The notes: generated by a model not told the origin, from the sequence alone. Shown: positions 26,141-49,708, numbered from the stretch's first letter. The stretch is 64,000 bases of DNA from Candidatus Azambacteria bacterium (GCA_016234725.1 JACRAK010000007.1:2121-66120), one strand, 5' to 3'. A program made the numbers and translations.

Positions 26141-26143
26141 CGC

Positions 26144-33508: not shown

Positions 33509-36058
33509 TTGCGTATGTCATTTTCTTCCAACGGCGTACAACTGAATGTGTGGAAAAAAAAGAGCTGGCTCTTTTCGTTCGCGGTGCGCGCGGCGGAGCT
33601 CGTGCTTTCCGTCATGTTCATCATCGCGCTCGGAGGCGTTGCGCTTATGCCTCACGACAGCAAGGCGGCGCTCGGTGTTTCCAATATTCTTTCGTATCAG
33701 GGGCGACTCACCGACGCAAGCGGCAATCCGCTCGGCGGCTCGGGCACAAATTACTGCGCCGCCTTTTCCATCTGGGACGCTTCAAGCGGTGGCACAAAAT
33801 TATGGCCGACCGCAACGTCAAGCACCACTATTTTGGTAACAAATGGCGTCTTTAACACGGGCATCGGTTTAGCGGACGATTTGAGCACATACAATTTTTA
33901 TGACAACAACACTACCTATCTGGAGGTTGATGTTGCCTCACAAGTTGGTGGAACGTGCACGGGGGTCAGCTGGGAAGCTCTCGCCCCGCGCCCCCGCATG
34001 GATGCCGCGGCGTATGCGCGTGTCGCGCGCGATGTCTACGGCGACCTTTTGCGCACCGACAATGCGAACGGCAGAGTGCAGGTCGGCACGGCGGGAACAA
34101 ATCCAACCCTACTTCTTCTTGGCACAAAAAATCTTGCCGACAGCACGCTTTCCTATGTCGGTCAGACCTGCACAACGAACGGTACGATGTGGTATAACTC
34201 CGCGACCACTCACTCGCTCCTGTGCGAGAATGGCTTCGTAAAAGCGCTCGCAAACGCCACCACCACTATTGACGCGCTCTTGCCCGCGGGAAACCTTGAT
34301 GTGGCGGCAACGGCGATAACAAACGGCACCATTACGCTTGCAGGGGGCAACAATATCACCTTAAGCCAGAACGGAAACGCGCTAACGATCCGCGCGGGAG
34401 CGGGTATTCCCGGCATTGCGGGTTCCGGCGCATCCACTGTTACCAACGGCACCCTGCAATTTGCCAATGCCAACAACATCAGCTTCGGCTTGAACGGTTC
34501 AACGATGACGGCTTCCTTCAGCCAATCGGCACAAACGCAAAACCTCCACAACATGACGCTTTCGGGGAACACCGCCGGCGTGATGGCGCAGGTATCAAGC
34601 GGCACCATGACGCTCGCGGGTGGGAATAATATCACTTTAAGCCAAAACGGGAATGCAATCACGATATCAGGTGGCGCAGGCGGGGGAGGAGCGGGAATAT
34701 CCGCGGGAACGCAGAGCGTCGCTACAGGCACCGTTATCTTTTCAAATGCCAATAATGTGAGCTTCGGCATGGCGGGAAGCCAGACCATTACAGCAAGCAT
34801 CCCGAGCATTCACAATGTCACTATGGGCGGAAACTCCACCAGCGCGGGCGCGGGATACATTCAGATTTCCTCCGGAACGATGTTGCTCGCGGGGGGTAAT
34901 AACATCACGCTGTCGCAAAATGGGGCATCAATAACGATCTCGGCATTTAATCAGACGGTGCAAACACAAAACCTCCACAACATGACGCTCGCAGGCAACA
35001 CCGCCGGCGTAATGGCGCAGATTTCTTCAGGCACGCTCACGCTCGCAGGAGGCAACAATATCACCTTAAGCCAGAACGGGAATGCAATCACGATATCAGG
35101 CGGCGCAGGCGGGGGAGGAGCGGCAATTTCTGCGGCAGGCAATTCAGTAAGTAACGGCACGGTAATATTTTCCAATGCAAACGGCGTGTCGTTCGGCATG
35201 GCCGGCTCCACGATCACCGCGACCGTCACTCCGGGAGCCGCCGCGGGCATCGCTGCTCTTGGCGCAAATACGCAAACAGCGACCAGCGGCACGATACTAT
35301 TTTCAAACGCAAATGGCGTGAGCTTCGGACTCAACAATCAAACGATCACGGCAAGCGTTGGCGGCGGCGCGGCACCCGTGCTCAACTATTATGACAACAT
35401 GCCATCGGGCGCCACCAACTCCGGCGGTGCGGGCTCTCTTGCTTTCACCGGCTCGCACCGCTCGCTCTTCGTTATGCCGTTTAACGGCTTTTATCATCCG
35501 TTCCCGGGCGACATCACCGCAAACACGGCGCATCTTAACCTCTCCATATCCGGCTCAACCGCCACAATGAGCGCCGTGTTTACCAGCAATTTTTATCTCG
35601 GTATTTATACCCTCAACACAGCTCAAAGTTCGTTAAGCTTGCTCAACTCCGCAAATATTTCTTTCGCGCAAAACCCCGCCGCCACCAACAACTCCACTGC
35701 GTTCGTCGGCCAGCGCTTTCTTTCTATCCACTCCTCGGTATGGTCCTCCCAGCCGGTATTTAAATACGGCAGTCAGTATTGGCTCGGGTATTTCTGGTCA
35801 TCCGCGGGGGCGTTAAACCAAACCGGCGGCCTCCTCGGCTTCTATCGTTATTCCACGGCACAACGATGGGGAACGATCACGCCGGCGGCAAGCAACACCG
35901 CGACCTCCATGGGCTGGGCGCCGTTTTACGGCATTTATACTGCGACAACCGCCGCACTTCCTACTGCTATAAACCGCACAGAACTAAACAAAGTAAACGC
36001 AAATGCCGGCTTTACCCCGCATGTCATTTTCAACGCCTCCGCGCAATCGGCGTTCTAA
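33509..36058 (+). CDS. large secreted/anchored repeat protein (849 aa) with ~4 tandem ~145-aa repeats (GTMTLAGGNNITLSQNGNAITISGGAGGGGAGIS...VIFSNANNVSFGMAGS), adhesin-like, probably parallel beta-helix
   Basis: N-terminal TM VLSVMFIIALGGVALMP; near-identical internal repeats visible in the translation. Confidence 0.7.
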   Translation: MRMSFSSNGVQLNVWKKKSWLFSFAVRAAELVLSVMFIIALGGVALMPHDSKAALGVSNILSYQGRLTDASGNPLGGSGTNYCAAFSIWDASSGGTKLWPTATSSTTILVTNGVFNTGIGLADDLSTYNFYDNNTTYLEVDVASQVGGTCTGVSWEALAPRPRMDAAAYARVARDVYGDLLRTDNANGRVQVGTAGTNPTLLLLGTKNLADSTLSYVGQTCTTNGTMWYNSATTHSLLCENGFVKALANATTTIDALLPAGNLDVAATAITNGTITLAGGNNITLSQNGNALTIRAGAGIPGIAGSGASTVTNGTLQFANANNISFGLNGSTMTASFSQSAQTQNLHNMTLSGNTAGVMAQVSSGTMTLAGGNNITLSQNGNAITISGGAGGGGAGISAGTQSVATGTVIFSNANNVSFGMAGSQTITASIPSIHNVTMGGNSTSAGAGYIQISSGTMLLAGGNNITLSQNGASITISAFNQTVQTQNLHNMTLAGNTAGVMAQISSGTLTLAGGNNITLSQNGNAITISGGAGGGGAAISAAGNSVSNGTVIFSNANGVSFGMAGSTITATVTPGAAAGIAALGANTQTATSGTILFSNANGVSFGLNNQTITASVGGGAAPVLNYYDNMPSGATNSGGAGSLAFTGSHRSLFVMPFNGFYHPFPGDITANTAHLNLSISGSTATMSAVFTSNFYLGIYTLNTAQSSLSLLNSANISFAQNPAATNNSTAFVGQRFLSIHSSVWSSQPVFKYGSQYWLGYFWSSAGALNQTGGLLGFYRYSTAQRWGTITPAASNTATSMGWAPFYGIYTATTAALPTAINRTELNKVNANAGFTPHVIFNASAQSAF

Positions 36059-36070
36059 ACACTCCCGCAT

Positions 36071-36577
36071 ATGTCAAAAAAAACAATACTGATCATCGCT
36101 TCTTTATGCCTCCTTGCCGTTGCGGCAGGTTCGCTATATTATTTTTTCTTGTATCGCCCGAACTGGGAGGTGCAAAAGATCGTGCGGGAAGGAGAATTAG
36201 CGGGGCAAACGGTACAGACCGTCACCGCCGAGCGCAGTTACCGCGACTTCACCTTTTCACCGACAATGAACGGGCTCACCGCGCACATTGCCGACCTGCC
36301 GGCAAACGCCAACATCCTGTCGCTCCATATTCAGATGGAGGATGTTTTTTTCGGTGAGCATGACGCCGTTCCTAATATGCAGATACTGATCCAAAACGAC
36401 GACGGCACAGCATGCACCATAGACATCAACACATTTACGGATGAAATACAGCAACTTACATCAGGAAAAATTTGCGCCATGGACATGCAAAGCACGGTGT
36501 TTCTACGGGACGCTTCCGCTATGCCGGCACTCATTTCCGGATCAATGAAAGTGCTTTTGTCGTATATAGTTTTTTAG
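36071..36577 (+). CDS. hypothetical membrane-anchored protein
   Basis: N-terminal signal anchor KTILIIASLCLLAVAAGSLYYFFL. Confidence 0.5.
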   Translation: MSKKTILIIASLCLLAVAAGSLYYFFLYRPNWEVQKIVREGELAGQTVQTVTAERSYRDFTFSPTMNGLTAHIADLPANANILSLHIQMEDVFFGEHDAVPNMQILIQNDDGTACTIDINTFTDEIQQLTSGKICAMDMQSTVFLRDASAMPALISGSMKVLLSYIVF

Positions 36578-36582
36578 ATCTC

Positions 36583-37299
36583 ATGCAACCACAAATTGTC
36601 ATAGAAAATCTTGCAGGGATACACAATACGCACCCCCAAACGGCGGAGCGCCTTGCGCTCGGCAAAGCATACAAAGACCTTTCTACCATCTGCATCGTGC
36701 CGACGCGCGGGGTCGTCCCCGCGAAAGTAGTGCAATCATGGATGGGAATGATCTCGCCGATGAACCAAAAGTTCACGCGCATTTTCGCCATCGGCATGGA
36801 GGTTGGGGAAGCGTACAGTTCCACCATCGCACAAATTTTAAGCCACCCGGAGCTTTCCCAATGGAAATATATCTTGACGCTTGAAGAAGATAATATGCCG
36901 CCTCAGGACGGTCTTTTAAAGCTCTATGAGAACATCGACAAATACGCCGCGGTCGGCGCGCTATACTGGACCAAAGGCGAAGGTGGCCAGCCGATGATCT
37001 ACGGCGAAGGAAAAGACAACGATATCCATTTCCGCCCCCAGCAGCCGACGCAAGATATCCAGGAATGCGACGGGCTCGGCATGGGGTTAACGCTATTTCA
37101 ACTGGATGTATTCAAGGACCCCCGGCTCTCGTACCCGTGGTTCAAAACACTCAACGACCTCGTACCGGGGCAAGGCGTGCAGATGATGACGCAAGACCTC
37201 TATTTCTTCAAAAACATCCGAGAACTCGGCTACAAGATCGCCTGCGACACACGCGTGAAAGTCGGCCATTATGATGTAAACGCGGACATCGTGTGGTAA
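36583..37299 (+). CDS. hypothetical protein, possibly a GT-A-fold glycosyltransferase; start moved to the Met at 36583
   Basis: TICIVPTRG (resembles the GT2 N-terminal beta-strand) and an acidic LEEDNMPPQDG patch; weak. Confidence 0.35.
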   Translation: MQPQIVIENLAGIHNTHPQTAERLALGKAYKDLSTICIVPTRGVVPAKVVQSWMGMISPMNQKFTRIFAIGMEVGEAYSSTIAQILSHPELSQWKYILTLEEDNMPPQDGLLKLYENIDKYAAVGALYWTKGEGGQPMIYGEGKDNDIHFRPQQPTQDIQECDGLGMGLTLFQLDVFKDPRLSYPWFKTLNDLVPGQGVQMMTQDLYFFKNIRELGYKIACDTRVKVGHYDVNADIVW

Positions 37300-37311
37300 A
37301 ATAGCGCTCGT

Positions 37312-38277
37312 ATGACGATTCATGTGAATATCAAAAAATTGGTCGTGATGGCGTCCGTGCTCGCGCTGGGCGCTTTATTGGGCGTTGGCGCATCGCGCTT
37401 TTTCCTCGCGCCTCCTTCTTCTCCATCCGCCATTACCGCTCCTTCCCCGTATGATCTCATCAATCCGGCGGCAACGGCGGATATCGGCAAGCACTTCATC
37501 ATCAATTTCAGCCCGCTTAAAAAAGAATTCGTCGCTATTCAAAACAAATATACGCAAAAAACCTATGTGTATTTCGTGTATCTCAATAACGCCTCATGGA
37601 TAGGGCTTGGGGAAAAAGATGTTTTTTACGCCGCGAGCACGGTCAAAGTGCCGCTTGCAATGGCCATTTTAAAAGCGGTTGAGGACGGCAAACTACGGCT
37701 CACCGACCGATACACACTTGAAGAGCTTGACCTGAATAAGGACTTCGGCGACCTCTATAAAGCAGGCGCAAACAAAGAGTTTACTGTCGAAGAATTGCTT
37801 GCGATCATGCTCAAGGAATCCGACAATACTGCGGCGGTCGCGCTGACGAGCATCTTTGCGAAAATCGGCGTTGCCGACCCGTTTCGCGCCGTATATGGCG
37901 CCATGGGTTGGGAATTCGACAACATGGAAGGCGTAGCGGATTACCGCGATATTAATTTGAAAACGCTCGCCAACGTGTTCATCGTTTTGTACAACGCCCG
38001 CTATCTGACAGCCGAACATTCGCAATTGATCCTCAAACACCTGTCCGTCACTCCGTTTGATAATAAAATCGCTGCAAGCGCTCCTTCTGACATCACCGTT
38101 GCCCATAAAGTGGGGATAGCTGCCGGCGTAAACACATTCTCCGACTGCGGAATCATTTATGCGCCAAACCGACACTACCTGCTGTGTGCCGGCTCTCAGA
38201 ACGCGGACGAAGCGACCGCCAACACATTTATGTCCGAGATCTCCAAAGCGGCATACAGTTATGTGATCGAACACTAA
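37312..38277 (+). CDS. class A beta-lactamase-like serine hydrolase
   Basis: S-x-x-K (ASTVK), SDN (KESDNTAA), K[TS]G-like HKVGIAAG; N-terminal signal anchor. Confidence 0.7.
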   Translation: MTIHVNIKKLVVMASVLALGALLGVGASRFFLAPPSSPSAITAPSPYDLINPAATADIGKHFIINFSPLKKEFVAIQNKYTQKTYVYFVYLNNASWIGLGEKDVFYAASTVKVPLAMAILKAVEDGKLRLTDRYTLEELDLNKDFGDLYKAGANKEFTVEELLAIMLKESDNTAAVALTSIFAKIGVADPFRAVYGAMGWEFDNMEGVADYRDINLKTLANVFIVLYNARYLTAEHSQLILKHLSVTPFDNKIAASAPSDITVAHKVGIAAGVNTFSDCGIIYAPNRHYLLCAGSQNADEATANTFMSEISKAAYSYVIEH

Positions 38278-38296
38278 CTATCGAAGTCCGACTTCA

Positions 38297-38345
38297 ATAA
38301 TATTTTATGAAACTTGATCTAGGGTGCGGGCAGAATAAACAGCAG
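38297..38345 (+). pseudogene. duplicated, truncated 5' fragment of the downstream SAM methyltransferase gene (MKLDLGCGQNKQQNV*)
   Basis: about 30 nt near-identical to 38899-38930; ends in a stop after 15 codons. Confidence 0.6.
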
Positions 38346-38406
38346 AATGTTTGACAGCCGAACGGTGTTTGCTATAATACAGTCTGTAACATAAAATATT
38401 ACACTT

Positions 38407-38622
38407 ATGCGAACCGTCATCAATATCTCTTTGCCGAAAAAAATGACCGAAGAAGTAGAAAAGGCGGTAAAAAGCGGCGGGTATGCCTCCAAAAGCGAGT
38501 TTTTTCGGGATATGATCCGCAGGTGGAGAGAAGAGCAGCTCTTGGAGGAAATAATGGAAAGCGAAAAAGAATTCGCGGCAGGAAAAGGGAAGGTTCTTCA
38601 TTCCTTGAAAGATCTTCGTTAA
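38407..38622 (+). CDS. type II antitoxin, ParD/RelB-like (RHH)
   Basis: 71 aa; ...SKSEFFRDMIRRW...; immediately upstream of the RelE/ParE toxin. Confidence 0.7.
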   Translation: MRTVINISLPKKMTEEVEKAVKSGGYASKSEFFRDMIRRWREEQLLEEIMESEKEFAAGKGKVLHSLKDLR

Positions 38623-38625
38623 GAC

Positions 38626-38883
38626 ATGAGGATCGAATACTCGCCAAAATTTAGGCGTTGTTTTAAAAAATTTCCACCGAAAATAAAAACGAGGACGGAA
38701 GAAATGATAGCCGTGTTTCTAGACAATCCTTTCGACTCAAAACTGAAAACTCATAAATTATCGGGTCCCCTGCGGAATTATTGGGCGTTTTGGATCGACC
38801 ATCGGCATCGAATTGTTTTTTCGTTTATGGGCGCCGCCACAGTTCGCTTTCATATTGTCGGCGATCATTCCATTTATCAGTAA
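38626..38883 (+). CDS. type II toxin, RelE/ParE/YafQ family
   Basis: 85 aa; KTHKLSGPLRNYWAFWIDHRHRIVFSF...FHIVGDHSIY. Confidence 0.75.
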   Translation: MRIEYSPKFRRCFKKFPPKIKTRTEEMIAVFLDNPFDSKLKTHKLSGPLRNYWAFWIDHRHRIVFSFMGAATVRFHIVGDHSIYQ

Positions 38884-38898
38884 CTTGGCACCGCTTAT

Positions 38899-39408
38899 AT
38901 GAAACTTGATCTTGCATGCGGACAAAATAAACGGGAAGGATTTAAAGGCGTGGACATCGCTTCGGGACCGGGCGTTGATTTTGTGGTGGATCTGGAAAAA
39001 TTCCCGTGGAAAGAATTCGAGGACGGTTCTATCGAAGAAATACACATAAGCCATTACGCGGAACACACGCCGGACCTGATGCAATTCATGAATGAAGTGT
39101 GGCGCATCTGCGAAGACAACGCGAAGATCACGATCATTTCTCCCTACTACACGTCCATCCGCGCATGGCAGGACCCGACGCATAAACGCACCATCTCGGA
39201 AGCGACATGGCTGTATTTCAACAAAGCGTGGCGCGAGGCGAACAAGCTCGCGCACTATCCCATCACCTGTAATTTTGATATCATACAGATGGTGGCGTTC
39301 TTCAATCCGCCATGGGATAAGAAATCGGAAGAAGCGCGCCAATTCGCGCAACAGCATTACTGGAATGCCGTGAGCGATATTCTCATAGAGCTCAAAGCGG
39401 TAAAATAA
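38899..39408 (+). CDS. class I SAM-dependent methyltransferase
   Basis: motif I LDLACGQN; 169 aa. Confidence 0.6.
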   Translation: MKLDLACGQNKREGFKGVDIASGPGVDFVVDLEKFPWKEFEDGSIEEIHISHYAEHTPDLMQFMNEVWRICEDNAKITIISPYYTSIRAWQDPTHKRTISEATWLYFNKAWREANKLAHYPITCNFDIIQMVAFFNPPWDKKSEEARQFAQQHYWNAVSDILIELKAVK

Positions 39409-39418
39409 TTATCCTCAC

Positions 39419-39961
39419 ATGAGGAAAAAACTAACACTTGTCATTGACGCCGTAGTCGTGCTTGCACTCATCGGCGCAGGCATATGGTGGTACGGCACAT
39501 CGCAAAAAACAGGGGGGAGGACGGTAAACATCGTTAAAACACCTACGACGCAGGAAACCGTGTCCGCAGAAAAAACGCCTGAACCGCTCAAAGAAGAATT
39601 CGTCGTGCCGGCAACTATCGCCGCCGCAACCTATGGCGATGAAAAAGTAACGACGGACGAACCGGCAAAGCTTCCCGAAGCAGTAAAATTCCAATCATTC
39701 TCCTATGACCCCGCGCAAGGCAAGGTCATCGCCATCTCGGGCGGGTGCACCGATGCCTATTACGCCGTACTCGTGTTTGACGCAAAGACCGACTATCGCA
39801 AAGACCCCGCCGCGGCGCGCGTAAATCGCGCATCCGAGTGCCCGGCAGACAAACTGTTCCGTACGCAGTTCGACTTTCGTGATTTTAACCTTCCTGCCGG
39901 CTCATACTATTTCTTTGTCGCCGATCAAGGCAACAAAGGAAGCTGGTATAATCCACGGTAA
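39419..39961 (+). CDS. hypothetical secreted/membrane-anchored protein
   Basis: N-terminal TM LTLVIDAVVVLALIGAGIWWY. Confidence 0.5.
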   Translation: MRKKLTLVIDAVVVLALIGAGIWWYGTSQKTGGRTVNIVKTPTTQETVSAEKTPEPLKEEFVVPATIAAATYGDEKVTTDEPAKLPEAVKFQSFSYDPAQGKVIAISGGCTDAYYAVLVFDAKTDYRKDPAAARVNRASECPADKLFRTQFDFRDFNLPAGSYYFFVADQGNKGSWYNPR

Positions 39962-39972
39962 CAACAAACAAC

Positions 39973-39998
39973 GTTTGACTTTTGACATTTAACTTTTC
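39973..39998 (+). promoter_or_regulatory. TTGACA-rich motif (gtttgacttttgacatttaacttttcc), recurs at 30467-30499
   Basis: shared 13-mer tttgacatttaac upstream of two genes. Confidence 0.35.
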
Positions 39999-40004
39999 CA
40001 CCCT

Positions 40005-40439
40005 ATGAACATACCGAAAAAAGCTCTCCTTATCACTTTTGTGATCGTCGCGGCGATCGTCGCTGTTGCGGCGGCGGCACCCAATACGAAACAGCGCGCA
40101 TGGCGCGACGCATTGCCCGCATGGTATGCGGTGCATCTCGCCAGCGGACAGACATATTACGGCCGCCTGCAGGCGATCACCGACACCACGCTCGCACTAA
40201 GCGACGCGCACTATTTTGAAGTATATGAAACAAAAACGGAGAATAAGACCGCAACAAGCACCAATTTTACGGTGACACAGGCACCGCAAACGATATATAA
40301 TCTCGTGCGCCAGGGGAGCGATCAAAACACGGCGACCGATCACACGATCTTTTTTAACCGCGCGGCGGTGCTTTTCTGGGAACGACTTGACCCCGCCGCG
40401 GGCGTGGTAAAAAACATCGTCGAAGCAGCAAAAAAATAA
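40005..40439 (+). CDS. membrane-anchored hypothetical protein; paralog of 61824-62294
   Basis: shared blocks LASGQTYYGRL / LSNGQVYFGAL, AHYFEV / AHYLQV, AVLFWERL / QILFWQNL. Confidence 0.55.
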   Translation: MNIPKKALLITFVIVAAIVAVAAAAPNTKQRAWRDALPAWYAVHLASGQTYYGRLQAITDTTLALSDAHYFEVYETKTENKTATSTNFTVTQAPQTIYNLVRQGSDQNTATDHTIFFNRAAVLFWERLDPAAGVVKNIVEAAKK

Positions 40440-40452
40440 CACGCATTTTTTC

Positions 40453-41679
40453 ATGCGATACACACGGGCGCTATCGCTCTCCATCATTTTTTTTATGCTG
40501 GTCGCCTCGTTTCTTGAAGCGGAGCTTTTTGTTCGTCCCGCGCGCGCGTTCGAATCGTCTTCGGCAGGTTTTGAAATGCACGCTGCCGATATCGGAACCA
40601 TCACCGGCTCGTCCAGCTCCGCGACCTTCGGCGTCCAGCATGCCGGGGGAAACACCGGCAGCGGCATCATCGCAAACGTAAAAAAGGTCTTTTCAAGCAT
40701 CATGCATTGGCTGTTTGATTGGTACGTGCCGCGCTACGACGAAATACACTATCGCTGGCGCAACGATGACGGCTCGGAAGTCGCGGCGACATTCTCCCCT
40801 TATGTGGAAGACGGCATTCTCACCGGACTCGCCAAAACCACCATCAAGCGCCTGCGATTTGAAATTTCAAACGAGGGATGGACACGCGGAAGCGGACCAA
40901 CATTCCAGCTTGAGGTCGCCCAAACCGCCACATGTTCTTCGGGGACCTACGCCGCAGTGCCTGCAACCGCCACCACCGAACATTGGGAAATGGCGGAGAC
41001 GGCCAATCTCACCGATGGCGCGGCGACCACCAATGTGGCGAGCGGACTCACCGATGCGAATGCGTCGTTTACCGCAGGAGAAACAAAGGACACCGGCAAT
41101 CAAACGACCGCGCTCACCGTCACTTCCGAACAATTTACCGAAATAGAATACAGTATCCGCGCTACCACCAATGCGGTTTCGGGCGCAACCTACTGCTTTC
41201 GCCTCACCAACGCCGGATCCACGACGAACTTCGTATACACGCGCTATGCGCGCGCCACCATCGCCGGCTATCCCGCCAATGGCACGCTCGAGTCATCTAC
41301 TTTTGACACCGGTATCACCGACGGCGCGGCATACAATTCGATCCTCTGGACCGGCTTCCTTAACGGAGGGAAAGTTGGATTACAGCTTGCAACCTCAAAT
41401 TGTTCCAACGGCGCAACAAACTATCCCACCTGCTCCACTGGCGTATGGGGAGCAACCGGAAGCGACTATCTGGGACCCGACTGTACCTCGGGAACATACT
41501 ATGAACAATCGCCTGGAGTTCCTGCTGAAATCAGTCTCGCATGTGCCACGCTTCAAAATAAACGATATTTCAGATACAAAGTACGGCTTTGCTCGACAAG
41601 CGACTGCTCGTCATCGGGAACCAACACACCAGAAATCAATGGCACTCAAGGCGGTATTATAATTAATTGGAGTCCATAA
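40453..41679 (+). CDS. secreted hypothetical protein (408 aa), Thr/Ser/Gly-rich
   Basis: signal peptide ALSLSIIFFMLVASFLEA. Confidence 0.55.
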   Translation: MRYTRALSLSIIFFMLVASFLEAELFVRPARAFESSSAGFEMHAADIGTITGSSSSATFGVQHAGGNTGSGIIANVKKVFSSIMHWLFDWYVPRYDEIHYRWRNDDGSEVAATFSPYVEDGILTGLAKTTIKRLRFEISNEGWTRGSGPTFQLEVAQTATCSSGTYAAVPATATTEHWEMAETANLTDGAATTNVASGLTDANASFTAGETKDTGNQTTALTVTSEQFTEIEYSIRATTNAVSGATYCFRLTNAGSTTNFVYTRYARATIAGYPANGTLESSTFDTGITDGAAYNSILWTGFLNGGKVGLQLATSNCSNGATNYPTCSTGVWGATGSDYLGPDCTSGTYYEQSPGVPAEISLACATLQNKRYFRYKVRLCSTSDCSSSGTNTPEINGTQGGIIINWSP

Positions 41680-41682
41680 AAC

Positions 41683-44600
41683 ATGTGTCCGACCCACAGC
41701 AATAAGATGTCAGTTGTAGCTTGGAGAATAATTTGCGTAGCGCTAATCGCGATAATTGTCTTTAATGGACAAAAAGCCAGCGCTGCTTTAATTCCTTTTA
41801 CTGCGGATACCAATATTGCGCAACATAAAATTATCTCTGCGGGAGGATCTCATTCCCTTGCCTTAAAATCAGATGGGACTGTGTGGGGGTGGGGATGGAA
41901 TGGGTTCGGGCAATTGGGAAACGGAACAACAATCAGCCAATCAATCCCTGTGCAGAGTAAGAAATATGACGGAACACATATAAATAACATTGTGGCAATT
42001 TCTGCTGGTTTAGCCCATTCTCTCGCCCTAAAATCAGACGGCACAGTGTGGGCGTGGGGACGCGGTAATTCCGGGCAACTAGGGAATGGAACCCTTATCT
42101 TTTACGATGGGCTAGCAAAACAAGTGCCTGGACTAAACAATATCGCGGCTATTGCCGCGGGTGGCAATTATTCTCTGGCCCTCAAATCAGATGGGACTGT
42201 GTGGGGGTGGGGAGCTAATTACTATGGACAACTAGGGGATGGAACCACTACTCAACAATTAACGCCAATTCAAGTTTATGGACTAACGGGAATCGTTGCC
42301 CTCGCCGCTGGAGACTACCATTCTCTGGCCCTCAAATCAGATGGGACTGTGTGGGGGTGGGGATATAATTTTGTTGGCCAACTTGGCGACGGAACAGCAG
42401 CTACCAGACTTATTCCTGTTCAAGTTAAAGGGCTTGGTGGCACAGGATTCCTGACTGACGTCATCGCTATTACAACTGGTCAAAATCATTCCCTTGCTCT
42501 TAAATCCGACAGAACATTGTGGGGGTGGGGGCGCAACGATTTTGGTCAATTAGGAGATGGGACAACAAATCACAGATACACGCCCATCCAGTCAACATTG
42601 ATAGGCATAACAGTTATATCAGCTAAAACCGACTACTCTTTTGCCCTCAAATCAGATGGGACTGTGTGGGGGTGGGGGCTTAACTTTGGATATTTAGGAA
42701 TTGGAACTAATTCTTATAGAGAAACCCTCCCTGTCCAGGTTATTGGTTTAACCGAAATCACAGCGCTAGCTACCGGATCAGGACATTCTCTGGCCCTCAA
42801 ATCAGATGGGACTGTGTGGGGGTGGGGAGAAAATTCATGGGGACAAATAGGTGACGGAACAGCGGCTACCAGACTTATTCCTGTTCAAGTTTTAATGGAA
42901 GCACCCTTAGATATTATTCCTCCTGATACGGTCATTATCTCAACCATTGATGGGGAAAATAATTCTATAGTAAACAATGGAACGACGACATCAGATTCCA
43001 TCACCCTCACATTCGGTGGTAGTGATAATGTTGGGATAGCTGGCTTTGAGTGCGGCTTTGATAATGGAACTTTTATTTCCTGTGTAAACCCCATTACGCT
43101 TACCAACCTTTCGCGTGACTTTCATATTTTTCAAGTACGCGCAAAAGATACAACTGGCAATATTGACCCGACGCCCCCAACATTTTTATGGAGAATTATG
43201 CTGCCCCAACAATTCTGGTCAGAAATCCAAAATGCCAATAAAGGATTGGGTTTGCGAACGACTCCGGGAACAATAAATAAACCGGCAAATGATATATTAA
43301 AAGTTGTTCCTAATAATTGGGCAATAAAAGTTATTGGCGCAGTTGATGCAAACGGCAATAATGTGGATGTTGACAATTACCGCTGGTATAAAGTTGAAGA
43401 TATGACCGATGGTACAATCGGTTGGATGGAGGTAAAAAATCTTTCGAGTGGAGCCGTGTATCTTGCGTATGATCCAAATTCGCAAGCCGATTTACAAAAT
43501 AAGGCGGCAGTTCAATTATCTACCGCGGAACAAAGAAAGTCGATTGTTCTGGATGCGGTTGATGTTTATTATACGAATCCCAATACAGTAGATTCACTCT
43601 ATGGCGGAGGCGGCGGCAAAGATGGATTAAATAATTTTCAAGGATTTATTAATGGTGCCGCCTTTCCTAAAGAGCTTATTTTATCCATCGCTGCACAGGA
43701 ATCCGGATTAAGCTCCAACAATGAAATATGCTCGGGTGCGAAGGACGGCGGAATAGGAATCATGCAAATCACCTCTCCTGATCTTAAAGGACTGGGAAGC
43801 GGATTAGATAACATTCAGAAAAAATACGATTGCGACGCAAAAACTGGCTGGATCGGTAATTTCAGCAAATATTATTCGAACGCCTTGCAGGGAATATACG
43901 CAAATATCAAAGATGGTTTCCGCGCTCTTCAGGGAAAGTATCGTCAAAAATGTCCGGGGGAAAACGCGATAATCAGCGGCTATACGTTTACCTGCCAGGA
44001 CATTGAGAAAATCCTCACCACGTGGGGATACAATGGATTTGCTAAAGATAAAGCTACGGGGCTTTATACGGGAAATTATCTTAAGTACATCGCCGATAAA
44101 TTGAGGAACCTAAACACATATTTTGCCGGAATTATTTATCCAAATACCGACAACCTCGTTGAAAAATTGGAAGTGGCAAATAACAATAAGCAAGTCATTC
44201 GGCTCTACAGCCCCGCGGTCTTACAGATTGTTGATACTGTGGGAAATATAACCGGGGTAACGGGCGATATCGTGCATGAGGATATTACCAACTCTTTATA
44301 TGAAAAAGATGCCGAGGGAGCAGTGATTTTTTTCCCACATAACAGGTATCGCTACCGCGTCATCGGCACCGCAACCGGAACATATGGTTTTACTGTAGAT
44401 TTTACAAAAAACGGAATACTTAAAACATTCAGAGCAACAGGCATCCCCATCACGACCGGTGAGATTCACGAATACTTAATCGACTGGGACGCGCTTGATC
44501 GCGGGGAACGGGGAGTAACAGTGAGCATAGATTATAACGGAGACGGGATTACTGATCAAATAATCATTTCTGATAGCGTGCTTACTGATATAGAACCTCC

Positions 44601-45264
44601 TTTCATATCCGCAATTCAATTAGATCAGGAGTATCTGTACGGCTCACCACTACAAATCTGGTTTAGCGCCACTGACAGCGTGTCAGGCATAGTAAGCGTT
44701 ACCGCAACCATAAACGGCATTGAAATAACTAACGATCAAATTCTGGTTTTTGATAAGCCGGGTACCAATGTTTTTCAAGTGATAGCCGTGGATAATGATG
44801 GAAATCAAACTACTCTTACACAAACATTTGAAGTAATTCTTGGCGCAACCCTACGCATTGAACCAAAAACGTTGAATCTCTCAAGTAAAGGAAAATATAT
44901 TGAAGTTGGGATTCGACTCCCTGAACCGTACGATATAGCGGATATCACTGTCGCAACAATACGATTGAATGGAGCGGTTCCCGCCATTAAATCAGAAATA
45001 GAGGTTGAAAATGAGCAGGGAGTCCTTACCAAGACCCTCAAGGTAAAGTTTGTGCGTACCGAGGCGCAAAAAACGGTCATTGTTGGCAAAAACATAGTGC
45101 TTGTTTCCGGAAACTTAAACGACGGCACCAGATTCAAAGGAACAGATATTCTTACTGTTATCAACCAACCCCATAAAAAGCTTTCTTCCTTCTTTGATTT
45201 TTTTCTAACACTGTTTAACAAATTTAGTCTAGCTAATATCCTGTCGTCTTTCAAAATAAAATGA
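41683..45264 (+). CDS. large exported protein: 7 RCC1-type beta-propeller repeats, central Ig/beta-sandwich-like region, lytic transglycosylase (SLT) catalytic domain, C-terminal domains
   Basis: 7x HSLALKSDGTVWGWG.N..GQLG.GT; SLT motifs LILSIAAQESGL and GGIGIMQITS; N-terminal TM. Confidence 0.75.
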   Translation: MCPTHSNKMSVVAWRIICVALIAIIVFNGQKASAALIPFTADTNIAQHKIISAGGSHSLALKSDGTVWGWGWNGFGQLGNGTTISQSIPVQSKKYDGTHINNIVAISAGLAHSLALKSDGTVWAWGRGNSGQLGNGTLIFYDGLAKQVPGLNNIAAIAAGGNYSLALKSDGTVWGWGANYYGQLGDGTTTQQLTPIQVYGLTGIVALAAGDYHSLALKSDGTVWGWGYNFVGQLGDGTAATRLIPVQVKGLGGTGFLTDVIAITTGQNHSLALKSDRTLWGWGRNDFGQLGDGTTNHRYTPIQSTLIGITVISAKTDYSFALKSDGTVWGWGLNFGYLGIGTNSYRETLPVQVIGLTEITALATGSGHSLALKSDGTVWGWGENSWGQIGDGTAATRLIPVQVLMEAPLDIIPPDTVIISTIDGENNSIVNNGTTTSDSITLTFGGSDNVGIAGFECGFDNGTFISCVNPITLTNLSRDFHIFQVRAKDTTGNIDPTPPTFLWRIMLPQQFWSEIQNANKGLGLRTTPGTINKPANDILKVVPNNWAIKVIGAVDANGNNVDVDNYRWYKVEDMTDGTIGWMEVKNLSSGAVYLAYDPNSQADLQNKAAVQLSTAEQRKSIVLDAVDVYYTNPNTVDSLYGGGGGKDGLNNFQGFINGAAFPKELILSIAAQESGLSSNNEICSGAKDGGIGIMQITSPDLKGLGSGLDNIQKKYDCDAKTGWIGNFSKYYSNALQGIYANIKDGFRALQGKYRQKCPGENAIISGYTFTCQDIEKILTTWGYNGFAKDKATGLYTGNYLKYIADKLRNLNTYFAGIIYPNTDNLVEKLEVANNNKQVIRLYSPAVLQIVDTVGNITGVTGDIVHEDITNSLYEKDAEGAVIFFPHNRYRYRVIGTATGTYGFTVDFTKNGILKTFRATGIPITTGEIHEYLIDWDALDRGERGVTVSIDYNGDGITDQIIISDSVLTDIEPPFISAIQLDQEYLYGSPLQIWFSATDSVSGIVSVTATINGIEITNDQILVFDKPGTNVFQVIAVDNDGNQTTLTQTFEVILGATLRIEPKTLNLSSKGKYIEVGIRLPEPYDIADITVATIRLNGAVPAIKSEIEVENEQGVLTKTLKVKFVRTEAQKTVIVGKNIVLVSGNLNDGTRFKGTDILTVINQPHKKLSSFFDFFLTLFNKFSLANILSSFKIK

Positions 45265-45782
45265 GCTTGTTTTCTTCTTCCCAAAAGGGTTTTTCCCTCG
45301 TTGAACTGCTGATCTACATCAGCATCTTTTCGGTCATTTCCGCTATTTTTATCGGCGTGCTGTCGCACGCGACGCTCGGGTGGACACGCTCGAAAGTAGA
45401 GTCGGAAGTACAGCAGAATCTGCGTTTTGCGATGGAAGATATCGCCCGCACCGCACAGAAAGCGACATCCATTTCTTCGCCGTCCGTCGGAAGCTCGGCA
45501 AGCGCGCTCACCGCGGTCGTCGGCGGACAAACCATACAATACTCGCTTTCGGGCACCGTACTGCAAAAACAAACTGGCGCAAACCCCGTAGAAAATATCA
45601 CTACCGATAAAGTAAAGGTGACCTATCTTTATTTCAAAACGCTCCAAAACACCGCACTATCAAACACCGGCGTACAGGCGACCTCGACCCGATTTGCCAT
45701 GACCGTGGAGTATAATTCCGACAACAATCAATTTTTCTACACCGAGCATGCCACATCGACCGCAACGCTTAAAAACAGGTGA
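45261..45782 (+). CDS. pseudopilin / minor pilin
   Basis: KG/FSLVELLIYISIFSVISAIFIGVL. Confidence 0.8.
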   Translation: MSLFSSSQKGFSLVELLIYISIFSVISAIFIGVLSHATLGWTRSKVESEVQQNLRFAMEDIARTAQKATSISSPSVGSSASALTAVVGGQTIQYSLSGTVLQKQTGANPVENITTDKVKVTYLYFKTLQNTALSNTGVQATSTRFAMTVEYNSDNNQFFYTEHATSTATLKNR

Positions 45783-45783: not shown

Positions 45784-45905
45784 CATGAAACATAGATCGT
45801 GAAACTTGAAACATGAAACATCAGGGCTTGAAACATATAACATATAACTTGAAACTGAGCGATTCAGGATTCACGTTTCAGGATTCACGTTTCAGGATTC
45901 ATGAA
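45784..45905. repeat. intergenic repeat block (cttgaaacatgaaac ... 3x caggattcacgttt ... aggattcatga) upstream of and overlapping the PilX-like gene start
   Basis: shares start and end motifs with 46341-46450 and the in-frame block in cca. Confidence 0.7.
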
Positions 45906-46340
45906 CGGGGCGCCGCTCTGCTTGCAACCACGCTTGCCGTTATCATCATCCTGCTTGCGATGGGTCTTTCCATGACATCATCGGGCCTGTTTGAAGGGCT
46001 TATGTCGCAGGCGCAAAGCGACTCGCGCGAGGCGTTCGCGGCCGCGCAATCGGGCGTCAAAGACGCTTATTTGCGCATCGCGCGCAATAAGGGCTTTTCT
46101 TCCGCGGGATATTATATCCCGTCCGATCCCTCCAATTGCACGCTCAACAGCTCTTCTTTGTGCACAAAAGTGATCGTGGAAAAAGACACCGCCGCATCAT
46201 GTTCCCAGTCGATCAGCGCCGGACAGGACTGCCTTATCGTTGCCGGAACGCTCAAAAATACGACGCGAACGATAGAGGTCATTTTGAATGTCAATACAAC
46301 TAATGGTAAAATAAGCGAAGTGTTGTGGAAGGAAATATAG
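45813..46340 (+). CDS. PilX-like minor pilin (non-canonical prepilin N-terminus ERGAALLATTLAVIIILLAMGL); start codon uncertain
   Basis: hydrophobic N-terminal helix after an ERG motif; pilus-cluster context. Confidence 0.55.
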   Translation: MKHQGLKHITYNLKLSDSGFTFQDSRFRIHERGAALLATTLAVIIILLAMGLSMTSSGLFEGLMSQAQSDSREAFAAAQSGVKDAYLRIARNKGFSSAGYYIPSDPSNCTLNSSSLCTKVIVEKDTAASCSQSISAGQDCLIVAGTLKNTTRTIEVILNVNTTNGKISEVLWKEI

Positions 46341-46450: not shown

Positions 46451-47932
46451 ATGGATTTAGCACAACTTTTTAAGCCGGTTGAAAAGATCGTCGGCATGGA
46501 GATCGCGCACGGGCGCGTGTGCGCGGTGTTGCTTGAAAAAGACAAAAAGGGCGTTGTTACCGGCACGAAAAAGGAAGCGGTGATCCCCCATGATATCGTC
46601 GCGGAGGACGGCACGGTACTCGACAAGCAAAAGCTCGCCCTAGCGCTCAAAACGATCTGGCACGCGGGAAAGGATGTTCTCAGATCAAAATATGTCATCG
46701 TCGCGCTCCCTTCGGCGCCGGTGTTCACCGATATCGTCAGATTCCCCAAGGTCACCCAAGAACAACTGAAAGAGGCGATGGAGCTGCATATGGCGACGAA
46801 AACATCGTTTCCCATCGACACGAATGATATTTATTACGACTGGCAGCCGCTCACCGCGCATAATGTGTATCATGAGGATGTTCTTTTGAGCTTCGCAAAA
46901 CAGCCGTATATCCGCGACTTCGCGGAAGCGTGCGAAGCGGCGGGGCTTGAGCCGCTCGCGTTCGAAACGCCGCAACCCGCGACCCTGCGCGCGATCACCA
47001 ACTTTGAGAAAAAAACCGGTTTGCTTATCCGCGTCTCGCAGGAATGCGCGGAATTTTCCATTGCTGCCGGCGCCGACCTATTCTTCACTCGCACCATACC
47101 GCTTCCTCCTTCGTACGATCTTGAAACGCTCAAAAACGCTCTTGCGACCGAAGCGACGCATGCGCTCAACTATTACGCGACGGAAAACCCCGAAGAAGCG
47201 CCCGTGACGACCGCTGTTCTTCTTACGCATGTGCCGCAAAAACAAGAGCTTGCCGCCCATCTTCGCACAGCGCTCGGCATCGAAATTGCAGATGCGCGGT
47301 TCGCTCATGATACCGCCATAGGGGACTCGTGCGCGGCGGCGTTCGGCGCTGCGTTGCGCGGGCTTGTCCGCAGAGAGGAGGACACGCTCATCAGCCTTTT
47401 GCCGATCGGCACCGAAGAAGCATATCGCAAACGGCGCTTTCTCGCTTATGTATCGCTCTGGTCTGATATCATCAATGCAACCGCGCTCCTCCTTGTCGTT
47501 CTGTTTGGCGCGACATGGTTTTTCGTCAATATTGCCTACACGAATGCGGTCCGCCAGACGACCCAGCTGAAAGCGGCATCGGGCGCAAGCACAAAGAGCG
47601 ACGAACTGGAACAAAACGCGCAGCGCTTCAATGCGGCGGTCGGGCGCATCACAGCGGCAAATGATACCATCATGCCATGGTCTCTTTTCATAGAAAAAAC
47701 ACTTCCCTCATTCACCAAAAACGACATCACCATGGAAAGCGTTTCATTTCCCTCATTCCGTTCCGACGGATCGCTTCAGATCACGGCGAAAACGCGCGCC
47801 AGCGCGATCGCATTCCGTAAAGCGCTGGAAGAAGATCCTCTGTTTTCCGAAGTGCACATGCCCTTCCTCAGCGTGACGCAAAAAGAGAACATCCTCCTTA
47901 CCATTACTTTCCGCTTCGCACCACAACCATGA
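46451..47932 (+). CDS. pilM: type IV pilus assembly protein PilM (actin-like ATPase fold) fused to a PilN-like TM/periplasmic segment
   Basis: N-terminal 350 aa PilM-like; TM at LLLVVLFGATWFFVNIAY then a periplasmic tail. Confidence 0.7.
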   Translation: MDLAQLFKPVEKIVGMEIAHGRVCAVLLEKDKKGVVTGTKKEAVIPHDIVAEDGTVLDKQKLALALKTIWHAGKDVLRSKYVIVALPSAPVFTDIVRFPKVTQEQLKEAMELHMATKTSFPIDTNDIYYDWQPLTAHNVYHEDVLLSFAKQPYIRDFAEACEAAGLEPLAFETPQPATLRAITNFEKKTGLLIRVSQECAEFSIAAGADLFFTRTIPLPPSYDLETLKNALATEATHALNYYATENPEEAPVTTAVLLTHVPQKQELAAHLRTALGIEIADARFAHDTAIGDSCAAAFGAALRGLVRREEDTLISLLPIGTEEAYRKRRFLAYVSLWSDIINATALLLVVLFGATWFFVNIAYTNAVRQTTQLKAASGASTKSDELEQNAQRFNAAVGRITAANDTIMPWSLFIEKTLPSFTKNDITMESVSFPSFRSDGSLQITAKTRASAIAFRKALEEDPLFSEVHMPFLSVTQKENILLTITFRFAPQP

Positions 47933-48483
47933 TCGAATACAAACTTCATGTCGCCCGGCAAGCGCTCCGGCTTACCCTCAAATCATTCGCGATCGCCATC
48001 GTAAGCGTGACGGCGCTCATATTTCTCGCCGGGGCCATCGCCCGCACCACCGACAGCGCCGTGCGCGCGCGGAACGACTTCACGATGCTTACGAAGAAAT
48101 TCGGCGCCATTGACCAGCTTACCCGCGACAACGATTCGCTCGCGGGCGTAACAGAAAAGCTCGAGAGCGCCATTCCCACGATGGACGACCTCACCCGCGT
48201 CGAAGAGTATCTTACGGTGACCGCCGTACAAACGACAAATGATATTACGATGCAATTTTCAGGAGGCGTAGGGCCGAGCGTCGGCAATGCGCTTGCCGAA
48301 CTTCCGCTTACCATTCAGCTTTCCGGGACACAAAAAACGCTTTCGGATTTCCTGCGCACGCTTGAAAGCGCACCCTATCTTATTTCCGTAAAAAGTGTCT
48401 CGCTTTCTTTTTCTGACAGCGCGCCGGATGCGGTCACCGCACAGATCGCCGCAACATTATTCCTTGAAACAAATTCCCGATGA
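47929..48483 (+). CDS. PilO-like inner-membrane pilus assembly protein
   Basis: single TM (FAIAIVSVTALIFLAGAIA), periplasmic domain; overlaps the pilM stop. Confidence 0.5.
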   Translation: MIEYKLHVARQALRLTLKSFAIAIVSVTALIFLAGAIARTTDSAVRARNDFTMLTKKFGAIDQLTRDNDSLAGVTEKLESAIPTMDDLTRVEEYLTVTAVQTTNDITMQFSGGVGPSVGNALAELPLTIQLSGTQKTLSDFLRTLESAPYLISVKSVSLSFSDSAPDAVTAQIAATLFLETNSR

Positions 48484-48743
48484 TAAAGATCGACCTCAAA
48501 AAAATAAAAGAGCTCAATTGGATCCTTTTTTTTAAACAGAATAAGTACTCTTTTATTTCCTTGTTCATGCTCGCGCTTTATTTCTATGCCACATTTTTTG
48601 CGGTCGTATTTATCGTAAAAAATGCCCGCCACGCTTTCGACATCGACGAGCAAGCGGCGGAGCGCACCGTCGTCACTTTCGACACCGAAGGATACGCTTC
48701 CATCGCGCGGCGCTTCGGGCACAGTACGGAGCCGAAAAATTAA
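48480..48743 (+). CDS. small membrane protein (87 aa), hypothetical
   Basis: overlaps the upstream stop; one TM segment. Confidence 0.35.
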   Translation: MIKIDLKKIKELNWILFFKQNKYSFISLFMLALYFYATFFAVVFIVKNARHAFDIDEQAAERTVVTFDTEGYASIARRFGHSTEPKN

Positions 48744-49708
48744 TTCTTGTCTTTTTCGTCCCGCTTGGTGTCGTGAAATTTTTTGTGGATCTCCTTGAGC
48801 TTGCTGTCGGTGTAATGCGTGTAGATCTGCGTCGTCGTGATGCTTGCGTGGCCGAGCATCGCCTGCACCGAGCGGATGTCCGCCCCGCCTTGCAAGAGGT
48901 CGGTCGCGAAAAAATGCCGCAGCTGATGCGGCGTCACTTTTTTTACCACGCCCGCTTTCGCGGCGTATTTTTTTATCATCCGCTGGACGGAGCGGGGAGT
49001 GAGGCGCAGATCGGCCTTCGTGTTTTGCTTGATATCGTGGCGCACAAACAGCGCGTCATCGATATCTTCGCGCGCATCGTCATACGCTTTGAGCGCTTCT
49101 TTCGCGCGGTCAGACAAAAACACGACGCGCAGTTTTCCTCCTTTGCCGAGCACCGCGAACTCTCCGGTAGCGAGATTGATGTTTTTGCGGGAGAGCGAAC
49201 ACAGCTCGGACACGCGCAATCCGGTTGAAAATAACGTCTCGAGCATCGCGCGGTCGCGCAGCGCGGTGATGTCATTTCCTTCGGGCGCGCTCAACAGGCG
49301 CTCCATTTCGGCTTGCTCGAGAAAATCGAGCTCGCGTTCGCGCACTTTCCCAAGTTCTATTTTTTCGGGGGCCAATGTTTTTACGTCGCGCTTTTGCAAA
49401 AACTTCAAGAACGAGCGCAGGGCTATCATATAATACGCCTGCGTATTCGCTTTCAGCCGCGCACCGCTATGGTCTTCTTTGCGATGCAAATGAAGCCGAT
49501 AGTTTCGCACGAGTTCGGACGTAATTCCTGCCGGGTTGTTTATTTTTGCGAATGTAATGAAGTGCACAAGATACCGCCGATAATTTTCAAGCGTTTTCGG
49601 CGAGCGGTTTTTTTCTATTTCAAGATATTCAAGAAAATCGTCGATGTATTTTTGCATGCTTCTATTATACCCCTCTCCTCTGTTTATAAAAAACAATAAT
49701 GACTTCAT
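48740..49708 (-). CDS. xerD: tyrosine site-specific recombinase, XerC/XerD family
   Basis: catalytic region HQLRHFFATDLL...GGADIRSVQAMLGHASITTTQIYTHY; N-terminal SAM-like core-binding domain. Confidence 0.85.
   Translation of the reverse strand: MKSLLFFINRGEGYNRSMQKYIDDFLEYLEIEKNRSPKTLENYRRYLVHFITFAKINNPAGITSELVRNYRLHLHRKEDHSGARLKANTQAYYMIALRSFLKFLQKRDVKTLAPEKIELGKVRERELDFLEQAEMERLLSAPEGNDITALRDRAMLETLFSTGLRVSELCSLSRKNINLATGEFAVLGKGGKLRVVFLSDRAKEALKAYDDAREDIDDALFVRHDIKQNTKADLRLTPRSVQRMIKKYAAKAGVVKKVTPHQLRHFFATDLLQGGADIRSVQAMLGHASITTTQIYTHYTDSKLKEIHKKFHDTKRDEKDKN

Follow-up and report, generated by a model that had tools for sequence, protein, structure and literature searches.

A gene on the plus strand of a 64,000-nt stretch of DNA from Candidatus Azambacteria bacterium (GCA_016234725.1, JACRAK010000007.1:2121-66120; the whole stretch is hereafter called the window) encodes a predicted secreted protein of 1193 amino acid residues, in which a seven-bladed RCC1-like beta-propeller is followed by a divergent domain of the SLT (lytic transglycosylase, LT) type, and it lies among the genes of a type IV pilus (T4P). 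We give about an even chance to the reading that this protein, secreted and modular, cleaves murein as an enzyme of the SLT / GH23 lysozyme-like superfamily, works together with the T4P and has the wall of a contacted host or partner cell as its substrate. The open reading frame (ORF) of 3582 nt (41683-45264) was present in the ORF list and in the translation of the window exactly as a first-pass annotation of this DNA had given it.

Relatives were collected with residues 501-906 of the target, which returned 14 first relatives, and with a profile search of 1.84 billion representative sequences, which returned 305 proteins at E ≤ 0.001 and 261 at E ≤ 1e-10. Since the family profile reached 305 proteins among so many, it appears to miss the bulk of the canonical SLT proteins. 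The motifs that the first-pass annotation had quoted for an SLT core were located at residues 669-673 (AAQES) and 690-697 (GIGIMQIT), giving E673-S674 and G692-I-M-Q695, and are followed by N741-I-K-D-G745 and by Y783-N-G785 (in G-Y783-N-G-F). In an alignment of 149 sequences, Glu673, the predicted catalytic residue, and Asp744 were invariant, and N680, G690, G692, Q695, Y731, N733, Q736, N741, K743, G745, Y783 and N784 were nearly so. When the 149-member core was compared by hhalign with an alignment of E. coli Slt70, EmtA, MltC and MltD, a probability of 94.7% was obtained (E 6.1e-8, 95 columns), and all four family-1 motifs were paired, namely QES with QES, GIMQ with GLMQ, NIKDGFRAL with NINIGTSYL and GYNG with AYNAG (family core and E. 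coli LTs, respectively); against EmtA the probability was 85.4%. PF01464 was matched by 9 of the 13 relatives, with P0010 (31.5 bits) and P0014 (26.1 bits) above the cut-off over nearly the full model. The SLT assignment therefore holds at the family level, because relatives pass Pfam, Glu673 is invariant and the hhalign probability is high. The target on its own stays narrowly below the Pfam cut-off for SLT, while its RCC1 head passes, and the low SLT score was traced to long insertions between motifs II and III. From these alignments we conclude that the helical domain represents a subfamily of its own within the SLT / GH23 lysozyme-like superfamily, divergent but with the catalytic signature intact. 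The invariant Glu and the four retained motifs point to selection on catalysis, and the domain is predicted to be active; the invariant Asp744 leaves open a hydrolytic mechanism beside LT (1,6-anhydroMurNAc) chemistry.

Structure searches were less informative for this domain. It was helical in both AlphaFold2 (AF2) models, that of three domains and that of the domain alone. A 13-member profile run against the PDB found EmtA only, and weakly (E 0.37), and a single-sequence PDB search with residues 501-906 found nothing relevant. Foldseek against the PDB gave weak lysozyme-superfamily matches for the three-domain model (E 0.017-0.15) and nothing below E 2.4 for the domain-only model. The best of these weak matches, all with E > 0.01, were to lysozyme-superfamily proteins throughout (CtCel124, Pseudomonas aeruginosa Slt, Slt70, a chitosanase and the R21 endolysin). 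Because the fold searches were without significance, a lysozyme fold is not claimed.

The conserved unit of the family was found to consist of an SH3b-like module, the SLT-like domain and a beta-sandwich. In the target, the SH3b/GW-like module gave sub-threshold Pfam matches (GW, E 0.004; SH3_3, E 0.0055), with SH3_3 at 21-26 bits in homologs, and AF2 modelled it as all-beta, with strands at residues 511-586. In a viral library, Foldseek matched a stretch of ~85 residues of this module to phage endolysins (probability 0.99-1.0, root-mean-square deviation ~3 Å, E 0.02-0.09), in a region that we read as their probable SH3b-type wall-binding modules. The viral-library search was convincing only for the SH3b-like part, the matches to phage SLT proteins being weak. 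The beta-sandwich, which makes up the first ~125 residues of the C-terminal query from the target, was matched in essentially all related loci, and AF2 placed its strands at residues 836-906 with pLDDT ~87-97. The strands of both modules, together with an OmpL47-type Ig-like match at residues 994-1046, agree with the beta-sandwich-like domains that had been noticed behind the propeller.

The tie to the pilus was followed through 66 unique related loci, of which 33 were informative, that is, with at least 6 kb of flank. T4P markers were found in 9 of the 33 (L002, L003, L007, L012, L019, L029, L030, L043 and L044), where the target homolog lies among genes for pilB, pilC, pilins, pseudopilin, PilX, PilM and PilO. 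A prepilin-motif match in L011 was a false positive in a non-pilin context and was left out of this count. The pilus-linked loci concentrate among the closest relatives of the target, with core identity of at least 47%. With only 9 of the 33 loci pilus-linked, the family cannot be regarded overall as a component of the pilus. The T4P link proposed for the window thus goes beyond adjacency, recurring in nine other loci, although most loci of the family are not linked.

A module of four genes, coding for an orf40453-like protein, the SLT-like protein, a pseudopilin and a PilX-like protein, was recognised in L002, L003, L007, L029, L030, L043 and L044, and in part in L028, L038 and L039. It spans Yonathbacteria, Saccharibacteria and unclassified Patescibacteria, and in L030 it occurs without PilM or PilO downstream. 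In the window, the target gene is separated by a 3-nt gap from orf40453 on its 5' side, and its stop codon overlaps the start of the pseudopilin gene by 4 nt; an ATGA stop/start overlap with the pseudopilin gene is present in three genomes (the window, L002 and L029). PilX-like homologs follow the pseudopilin in L002, L003, L007, L030 and L043, and orf40453 homologs adjoin the SLT-like gene in L002, L003, L007, L028, L029, L030, L038, L039, L043 and L044. The genes for the orf40453-like proteins, which are of the secreted type and have ~320-550 residues, accompanied the SLT-like gene more regularly than any other neighbour, lying now before and now after it; the orf40453 protein of the window had no match in Pfam, NCBIfam or PDB.

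The propeller head of the target was identified by several searches. WD40_RLD matched it at a Pfam E of 5.7e-107, RCC1 and RCC1_2 each matched seven stretches, and the RCC1-like propeller models as a group (PF00415, PF13540 and PF25390) exceeded their gathering thresholds, the scores being 358.6, 240.7 and 222.7 bits and the respective cut-offs 150, 21.7 and 22. The best sequence matches in the PDB were the RLD of HERC2 (E 3.7e-70) and UVR8 (~1e-53). The repeats form seven LKSD-anchored blades of 49-56 residues, which confirms the seven RCC1 blades that had been counted before. Among the family representatives, an RCC1 head was found in 2 of 148, namely in the target (P0015) and in P0038. The P0038 contig (L028) is syntenic gene for gene with 33509-45264 of the window and carries the same RCC1 + SLT fusion; as P0038 is a syntenic ortholog, the fusion is real, rare and kept in at least two lineages. 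The first-pass annotation had called a propeller fused to an SLT domain unusual, which is right for RCC1; the family rule, on the other hand, is a variable N-terminal module, and propellers of the NHL, SBBP and PD40 types are also found there. With the RCC1 domain as the only query, over 7,600 ordinary bacterial RCC1 surface proteins were retrieved; the 120 best of them contained neither a pilin nor an SLT domain. By its sequence, the propeller would be a glycan- or surface-binding, lectin-like head. No Pfam match was found in the spacer that follows it (residues 401-505).

Clustered at 50% identity, the family amounts to ~300 clusters; Patescibacteria supply most of them and archaea some. Matches in genomes were almost all to metagenome-assembled genomes (MAGs) of Patescibacteria (Yonathbacteria, Saccharibacteria, Nomurabacteria and Paceibacterota), with a few bins of Planctomycetota or Bipolaricaulota. 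The N-terminal regions of 118 members fell into 39 sequence clusters, the biggest of which (72 members) is itself mixed: the scanned members carry Beta_helix/NosD (P0016), Lcl_C (P0018) or no named N-terminal domain (P0022). Beside RCC1, the heads of the family include Beta_helix/NosD, Laminin_G_3, Lcl_C, SBBP, NHL and PD40 propellers, CarboxypepD_reg and PG_binding_1, and thus four types of propeller (RCC1, NHL, SBBP and PD40). In a Nomurabacteria locus (L014), two SLT-like paralogs were seen together with two genes for the conserved beta-sandwich alone (167-1789, 2511-3230, 4966-7887 and 7890-8363), an arrangement that suggests local duplication and module shuffling.

Some members of the family appear to be archaeal. 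On the contig of P0012, a homolog of initiation factor 2 (IF-2) scored 781 and 708 bits on the NCBIfam models for archaeal IF-2 (aIF-2), above their cut-offs, and below the cut-off of the bacterial model; the C-termini of P0010 and P0011 have PEF- or PGF-CTERM-like tails. To the same observation belongs L034 (10466-12214, minus strand), and a pyruvoyl arginine decarboxylase-like gene, with scores below cut-offs, was also seen on the P0012 contig. As archaea have no murein, their possession of an SLT-like enzyme points to a foreign substrate.

The features of the target gene and of its surroundings are listed in Table 1. A GGAG lies 10 nt 5' of the first ATG of the target (41683), and the alternative start is Met9 (ATG at 41707); P0015, in the public library of 50% representatives, is identical to the target from Met9 onward. 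The sole strongly hydrophobic 19-mer of the protein is N-terminal (Kyte-Doolittle 2.6), in a segment that ends in KASA/A (the slash marks the cleavage point), and the leader looks like a Sec-type signal peptide, by which the protein would be secreted. A class III prepilin leader was considered and rejected, as the leader MSVVAWRIICVALIAIIVFNGQKASA has no G-F-[ST]-L-x-E (G/F-[ST]-L-x-E with Glu5). At the other end of the protein, the Kyte-Doolittle maximum is 1.14. An amphipathic, Phe/Leu-rich tail of ~30 residues (45172-45261, residues 1164-1193) closes both the target and its homolog in L003, preceded in both by a conserved G-x-D-I-[IL]-x-[VI]-I-N motif; this tail could be an anchoring or docking element.

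Table 1. Features of the target gene, its domains and the neighbouring pilus genes in the window (a slash in a leader marks the cleavage point).
Feature	Position	Strand	Basis or detail
Target gene: RCC1 + SH3b-like + SLT-like + beta-sandwich protein, predicted secreted	41683-45264	+	ORF, translation
Hydrophobic leader VVAWRIICVALIAIIVF...KASA/A	41707-41784	+	Sec-type by look, not prepilin
RCC1-like beta-propeller, seven blades (aa ~43-400)	41809-42882	+	Pfam and PDB matches
Ig-like spacer (aa 401-505), putative	42883-43197	+	Ortholog P0038, Big_2 at same position
SH3b/GW-like module, putative wall-binding (aa 506-595)	43198-43467	+	Weak Pfam matches, AF2, Foldseek
Divergent SLT / GH23 lysozyme-like domain (aa 596-835)	43468-44187	+	Family invariance, Pfam in relatives, hhalign
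Predicted catalytic Glu673	43699-43701	+	ES motif
Beta-sandwich, always 3' of the SLT-like domain (aa 836-975)	44188-44607	+	Essentially all related loci, AF2
Ig-like domain, OmpL47-type (aa 994-1046)	44662-44820	+	NCBIfam NF047446, 31-34 bits, cut-off 40 not reached
C-terminal beta-rich region, lineage-variable, with 30-aa amphipathic tail	44821-45261	+	Resembles C-terminal regions of P0004 and P0005
orf40453, 408-aa secreted-type partner protein of the SLT-like gene	40453-41679	+	Homologs beside SLT-like genes
Pseudopilin / minor pilin	45261-45782	+	N_methyl E 2.5e-7; leader MSLFSSSQKG/FSLVELL
PilX-like minor pilin	45813-46340	+	PilX_N 20.7 bits, cut-off 25.5 not reached
PilM (46451-47932) and PilO-like (47929-48483)	46451-48483	+	PilM_2 38 bits, TIGR01175 51 bits; PilO 20.1, sub-threshold
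Upstream T4P genes	24714-32775		Pilin 24714-25415, PilB 26144-27856, PilC 28306-29517, prepilins 29617-31197
Upstream T4P genes, rest			Response regulator 31567-32019; pilin 32101-32775 (-); N_methyl matches
Beta-lactamase2 / penicillin-binding protein (PBP)-like hydrolase	37312-38277	+	Pfam 2.6e-36

Downstream of the target, the pseudopilin, PilX-like, PilM and PilO-like genes follow as the first-pass annotation had described, the PilX-like and PilO-like genes at sub-threshold scores. ComGE-, ComGF- and GspJ-type matches of the pseudopilin were all below cut-offs. The PilM model covered only residues 15-184 of an ORF of 493 residues, and no separate PilN was identified; the ORF is probably a PilM-PilN-type fusion. 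T4P genes of the window were matched by T2SSE (1e-123) and T2SSF (3e-55) in Pfam, and the full cluster also holds several secreted-type proteins without a named family. Scans for promoters and terminators around the operon gave nothing above the shuffled expectation.

The same annotation had assembled a wider wall-degrading apparatus from the beta-lactamase2-like hydrolase, a LysM-M23 endopeptidase and giant adhesins. Such genes exist in the window (beta-lactamase2-like, Table 1; LysM-M23, 58461-59783, minus strand; a 2424-residue Kelch/fn3 protein, 3421-10695, minus strand), and the last of them contains Kelch repeats, three purple-acid-phosphatase-N-type domains and fn3. The LysM-M23 gene is 13 kb off, on the other strand and amid housekeeping genes, the Kelch/fn3 giant is 31 kb off, and neither recurs; being distant and non-recurring, both were left out of the system, and the apparatus as drawn is not supported. 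What remains of it is the beta-lactamase2-like gene, which was found again in L003 (3115-4101), L028 (2816-3796) and L044 (~3567), each time a few kb 5' of the SLT-like gene, and is a possible second peptidoglycan-active partner.

Some further observations were made in and around the pilus genes. A perfect sigma-70 consensus (TTGACA-16-TATAAT with an upstream TG) lies at 38351-38378, 5' of a small ORF (38626-38883) that stands amid the pilus-flanking genes and has weak YoeB/YafQ/ParE-like toxin matches, all below cut-off. Directly after the PilO-like operon lies a XerC/D-type tyrosine recombinase gene (48740-49708, minus strand), a homolog of which, 53% identical, was found at 5450-6373 of L011, 2 kb upstream of the SLT-like gene and with no pilus genes nearby. 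A '23S rRNA-intervening-sequence protein' domain (PF05635) is in frame with a prepilin at 29617-30465 of the window, and PF05635-type genes were also found within the pilus clusters of three other Patescibacteria (L002, 3011-3406; L003, 13356-13745; L007, 13437-14222). One PF05635-type gene is fused to a PilX-like gene, and the association with pilus clusters is recurrent.

The composition of the target gene differs from that of its surroundings. Its G+C content at third codon positions (GC3) was 0.388, compared with 0.612 ± 0.043 for the 37 other genes of the window (z = -5.2), the lowest of which has 0.523. It was the only compositional outlier among the 38 window genes, with low values in all its domains and normal ones in its immediate neighbours. 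The SLT-like gene was the low-GC3 member also in L028, L003, L007, L029, L030, L012 and L019 (0.28-0.39, with neighbours at 0.31-0.70), whatever the GC of the genome. Recent acquisition or replacement of the target relative to its L028 ortholog was considered and rejected: the two SLT-like proteins are 44% identical, like the neighbouring surface proteins (38-43%), and the ortholog also has low GC3. An anomaly that is also present in the syntenic ortholog is either old or maintained, and a single recent transfer does not account for it; repeated exchange with a low-GC gene pool and a gene-specific constraint are both possibilities.

According to the reading that we prefer, the protein would be exported by way of its Sec leader and would bind a glycan or a surface with the RCC1 propeller as its head. 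The SH3b/GW-like module would hold it on peptidoglycan together with the beta-sandwich, and the bond between N-acetylmuramic acid (MurNAc) and N-acetylglucosamine (GlcNAc) would be cut by Glu673, with which the ES helix ends. Made along with the minor pilins, the enzyme would breach the contacted wall locally, allowing attachment or the uptake of nutrients or DNA. A foreign wall is the most likely substrate, given the exchangeable head, the presence of members in archaea, which lack murein, and the link of the gene to the module of pseudopilin, PilX-like and orf40453-like genes. Penetration of a host is plausible as well, for which the archaeal members and the lectin-like heads, as judged from their sequences, argue. 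LTs of Patescibacteria have been put forward as agents that damage the host envelope (PMC11665869), and for DPANN archaea, which are small-celled and mostly symbiotic, large extracellular LT proteins with a supposed action on bacterial walls have been reported (bioRxiv 10.1101/2021.01.12.426361).

Several points weigh against this reading. The Pfam SLT model scored 16.8 bits on the whole target and 20.1 bits on the isolated core and did not reach its gathering score of 21.3; the central 40 residues of the catalytic domain had AF2 pLDDT values below 50, and neither AF2 model gave a Foldseek match at E ≤ 0.001. About 70% of the informative loci are without pilus genes nearby. The closest RCC1 domains (~50% identity) belong to ordinary surface proteins of many phyla, with no pilin motif in the top 120. 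Moreover, variable wall-binding modules are typical of a cell's own autolysins too, and the specialised LTs of pilus and secretion operons classically cut the wall of the producer.

The last point leads to the strongest alternative, possible though clearly less probable than the preferred one, in which the enzyme is self-directed and makes space for the machine, opening a gap in the cell's own peptidoglycan for the passage of the T4P, or of a DNA-uptake pseudopilus, through a monoderm wall. The target sits in, and is translationally coupled with, the pilus assembly genes, a location shared between the window and at least nine other loci, and the beta-lactamase2-like gene, as a second peptidoglycan-active candidate, is syntenic in L003, L028 and L044. 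Specialised LTs in the operons of transport systems are an established class, with VirB1, BfpH, PilT of R64, EtgA and FlgJ as LTs of trans-envelope machines; such specialised LTs were reportedly treated by Koraimann in 2003 and by Zahrl in 2005. However, the known ones are small and single-domain, and the modules found here are large and differ widely between close relatives; the many loci without nearby pilus genes and the members in murein-less archaea likewise disagree with a role in the producer's own wall.

The preferred reading of an enzyme for a foreign wall can also be carried further, to an enzyme at or close to the pilus tip, the conserved core of which would dock to the pseudopilin, PilX-like and orf40453-like proteins in the manner of PilY1 on minor pilins and which, with a swappable lectin head that selects the host surface, would be a 'pilus-borne drill' on the host wall; the deviant composition would then mirror the exchange of specificity cassettes among lineages. 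This extension is rather unlikely. Less likely again is a general secreted or wall-bound autolysin or exolysin, serving cell separation, turnover or competition, for which the place in the pilus operon would be incidental or regulatory. Most of the family, the large beta-helix class among it, has no link to the pilus, and the combination of a catalytic domain with SH3b-type targeting modules is reminiscent of autolysins and bacteriolysins. Against such a role speak the overlap of stop and start codons at the pseudopilin gene in three genomes and the four-gene module, the recurrence of which over several lineages is unlikely to be due to chance in genomes of ~1 Mb. Finally, a non-catalytic adhesin, in which the SLT-like domain would merely bind glycan strands for attachment, has very little probability; the divergence of the domain (305 proteins in 1.84 billion at E ≤ 0.001) and its weak Foldseek matches favour it, but none of the 149 aligned sequences lacks the catalytic Glu, and the family has lost none of the four family-1 motifs.

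One outstanding question about the ultrasmall Patescibacteria is how they breach the envelopes of the cells that carry them. The family described here is small and delimited, with an intact catalytic signature and fast-changing lectin-like heads, has a place in a minor-pilin module in one subclade, and occurs in murein-less archaea too. Because Saccharibacterial MAGs carry homologs and genetics exists for cultivated Saccharibacteria, the question of self versus host is directly testable. If the enzyme serves the passage of the pilus through the cell's own wall, it would be a dedicated wall-remodelling factor for monoderm-type T4P, and we know of no earlier one. In the literature examined, no description of a Patescibacterial LT-T4P link of this kind was found, and reviews name LTs merely as generic candidates for the Patescibacterial envelope breach (PMC11665869).

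Compared with the family-1 LTs (PF01464, GH23; Slt70, EmtA/MltE, MltC and MltD), the target family has the same order of motifs (E-S, G-[LI]-M-Q, N-I-x-x-G-x-x-x-L and Y-N-x-G) and a helical prediction. It differs from them in having insertions of 35-200 residues between motifs II and III, in adding an invariant Y-x-N-x-x-Q...K-D-G signature (Asp744), and in always being attached to an SH3b-like module and a beta-sandwich. Like VirB1, BfpH of the bundle-forming pilus, PilT of the R64 thin pilus, EtgA and FlgJ, the target is an SLT-type domain inside the operon of a machine. The known VirB1-type LTs are short, single-domain and self-directed, whereas the target has 1193 residues, at least six domains and a variable head, and belongs to a monoderm-like ultrasmall bacterium. 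With phage endolysins, tail lysins and bacteriolysins it shares an enzyme, SH3b and swappable specificity modules, but unlike phage lysins it is chromosomal and in a pilus operon, with no phage context in the window.

The PilY1 / PilC tip adhesins are likewise large non-pilins that go with minor pilins, consist of conserved and variable parts and have a seven-bladed propeller. No PilY1-type propeller was found in the target (no Pfam match at E ≤ 0.1); its only propeller is the N-terminal RCC1, which is the variable part and not the conserved docking part. The fam00969 proteins of DPANN archaea (bioRxiv 10.1101/2021.01.12.426361), compared by description, are also large secreted SLT-domain proteins of ultrasmall symbionts; they have been proposed to bind or degrade the bacterial wall of the host, and have not been reported to be pilus-linked.

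A parallel for the head comes from Nanosynbacter lyticus TM7x, in which PilX2, a protein with an RCC1 heptabladed propeller and a non-PilD leader, encoded in a pilin locus, is required for efficient host binding, and PilX1 has an L-type-lectin jelly roll, the binding being governed by the wall glycans of the host (PMC11623550). By description, the target is likewise an RCC1 propeller protein with a non-prepilin leader in a pilin locus. PilX2 is described as a pilin-like lollipop that bears its propeller at the C-terminus and lacks an enzyme domain (PMC11623550), whereas the propeller of the target is N-terminal, straight after the leader, and is followed by ~800 residues that include the SLT-like enzyme. 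The search with the RCC1 domain alone gained no tie to PilX2-type proteins; the fold classes of PilX1 and PilX2, ConA-like lectin and RCC1, both occur as heads in the target family (Laminin_G_3 and RCC1). The known parts are thus the SLT-type enzyme, the RCC1 surface module and the presence of an LT in the operon of a machine; new are the family of SH3b-like module, divergent SLT domain and beta-sandwich with its variable heads, its place in a minor-pilin module in a Patescibacterial subclade, and the RCC1-headed version.

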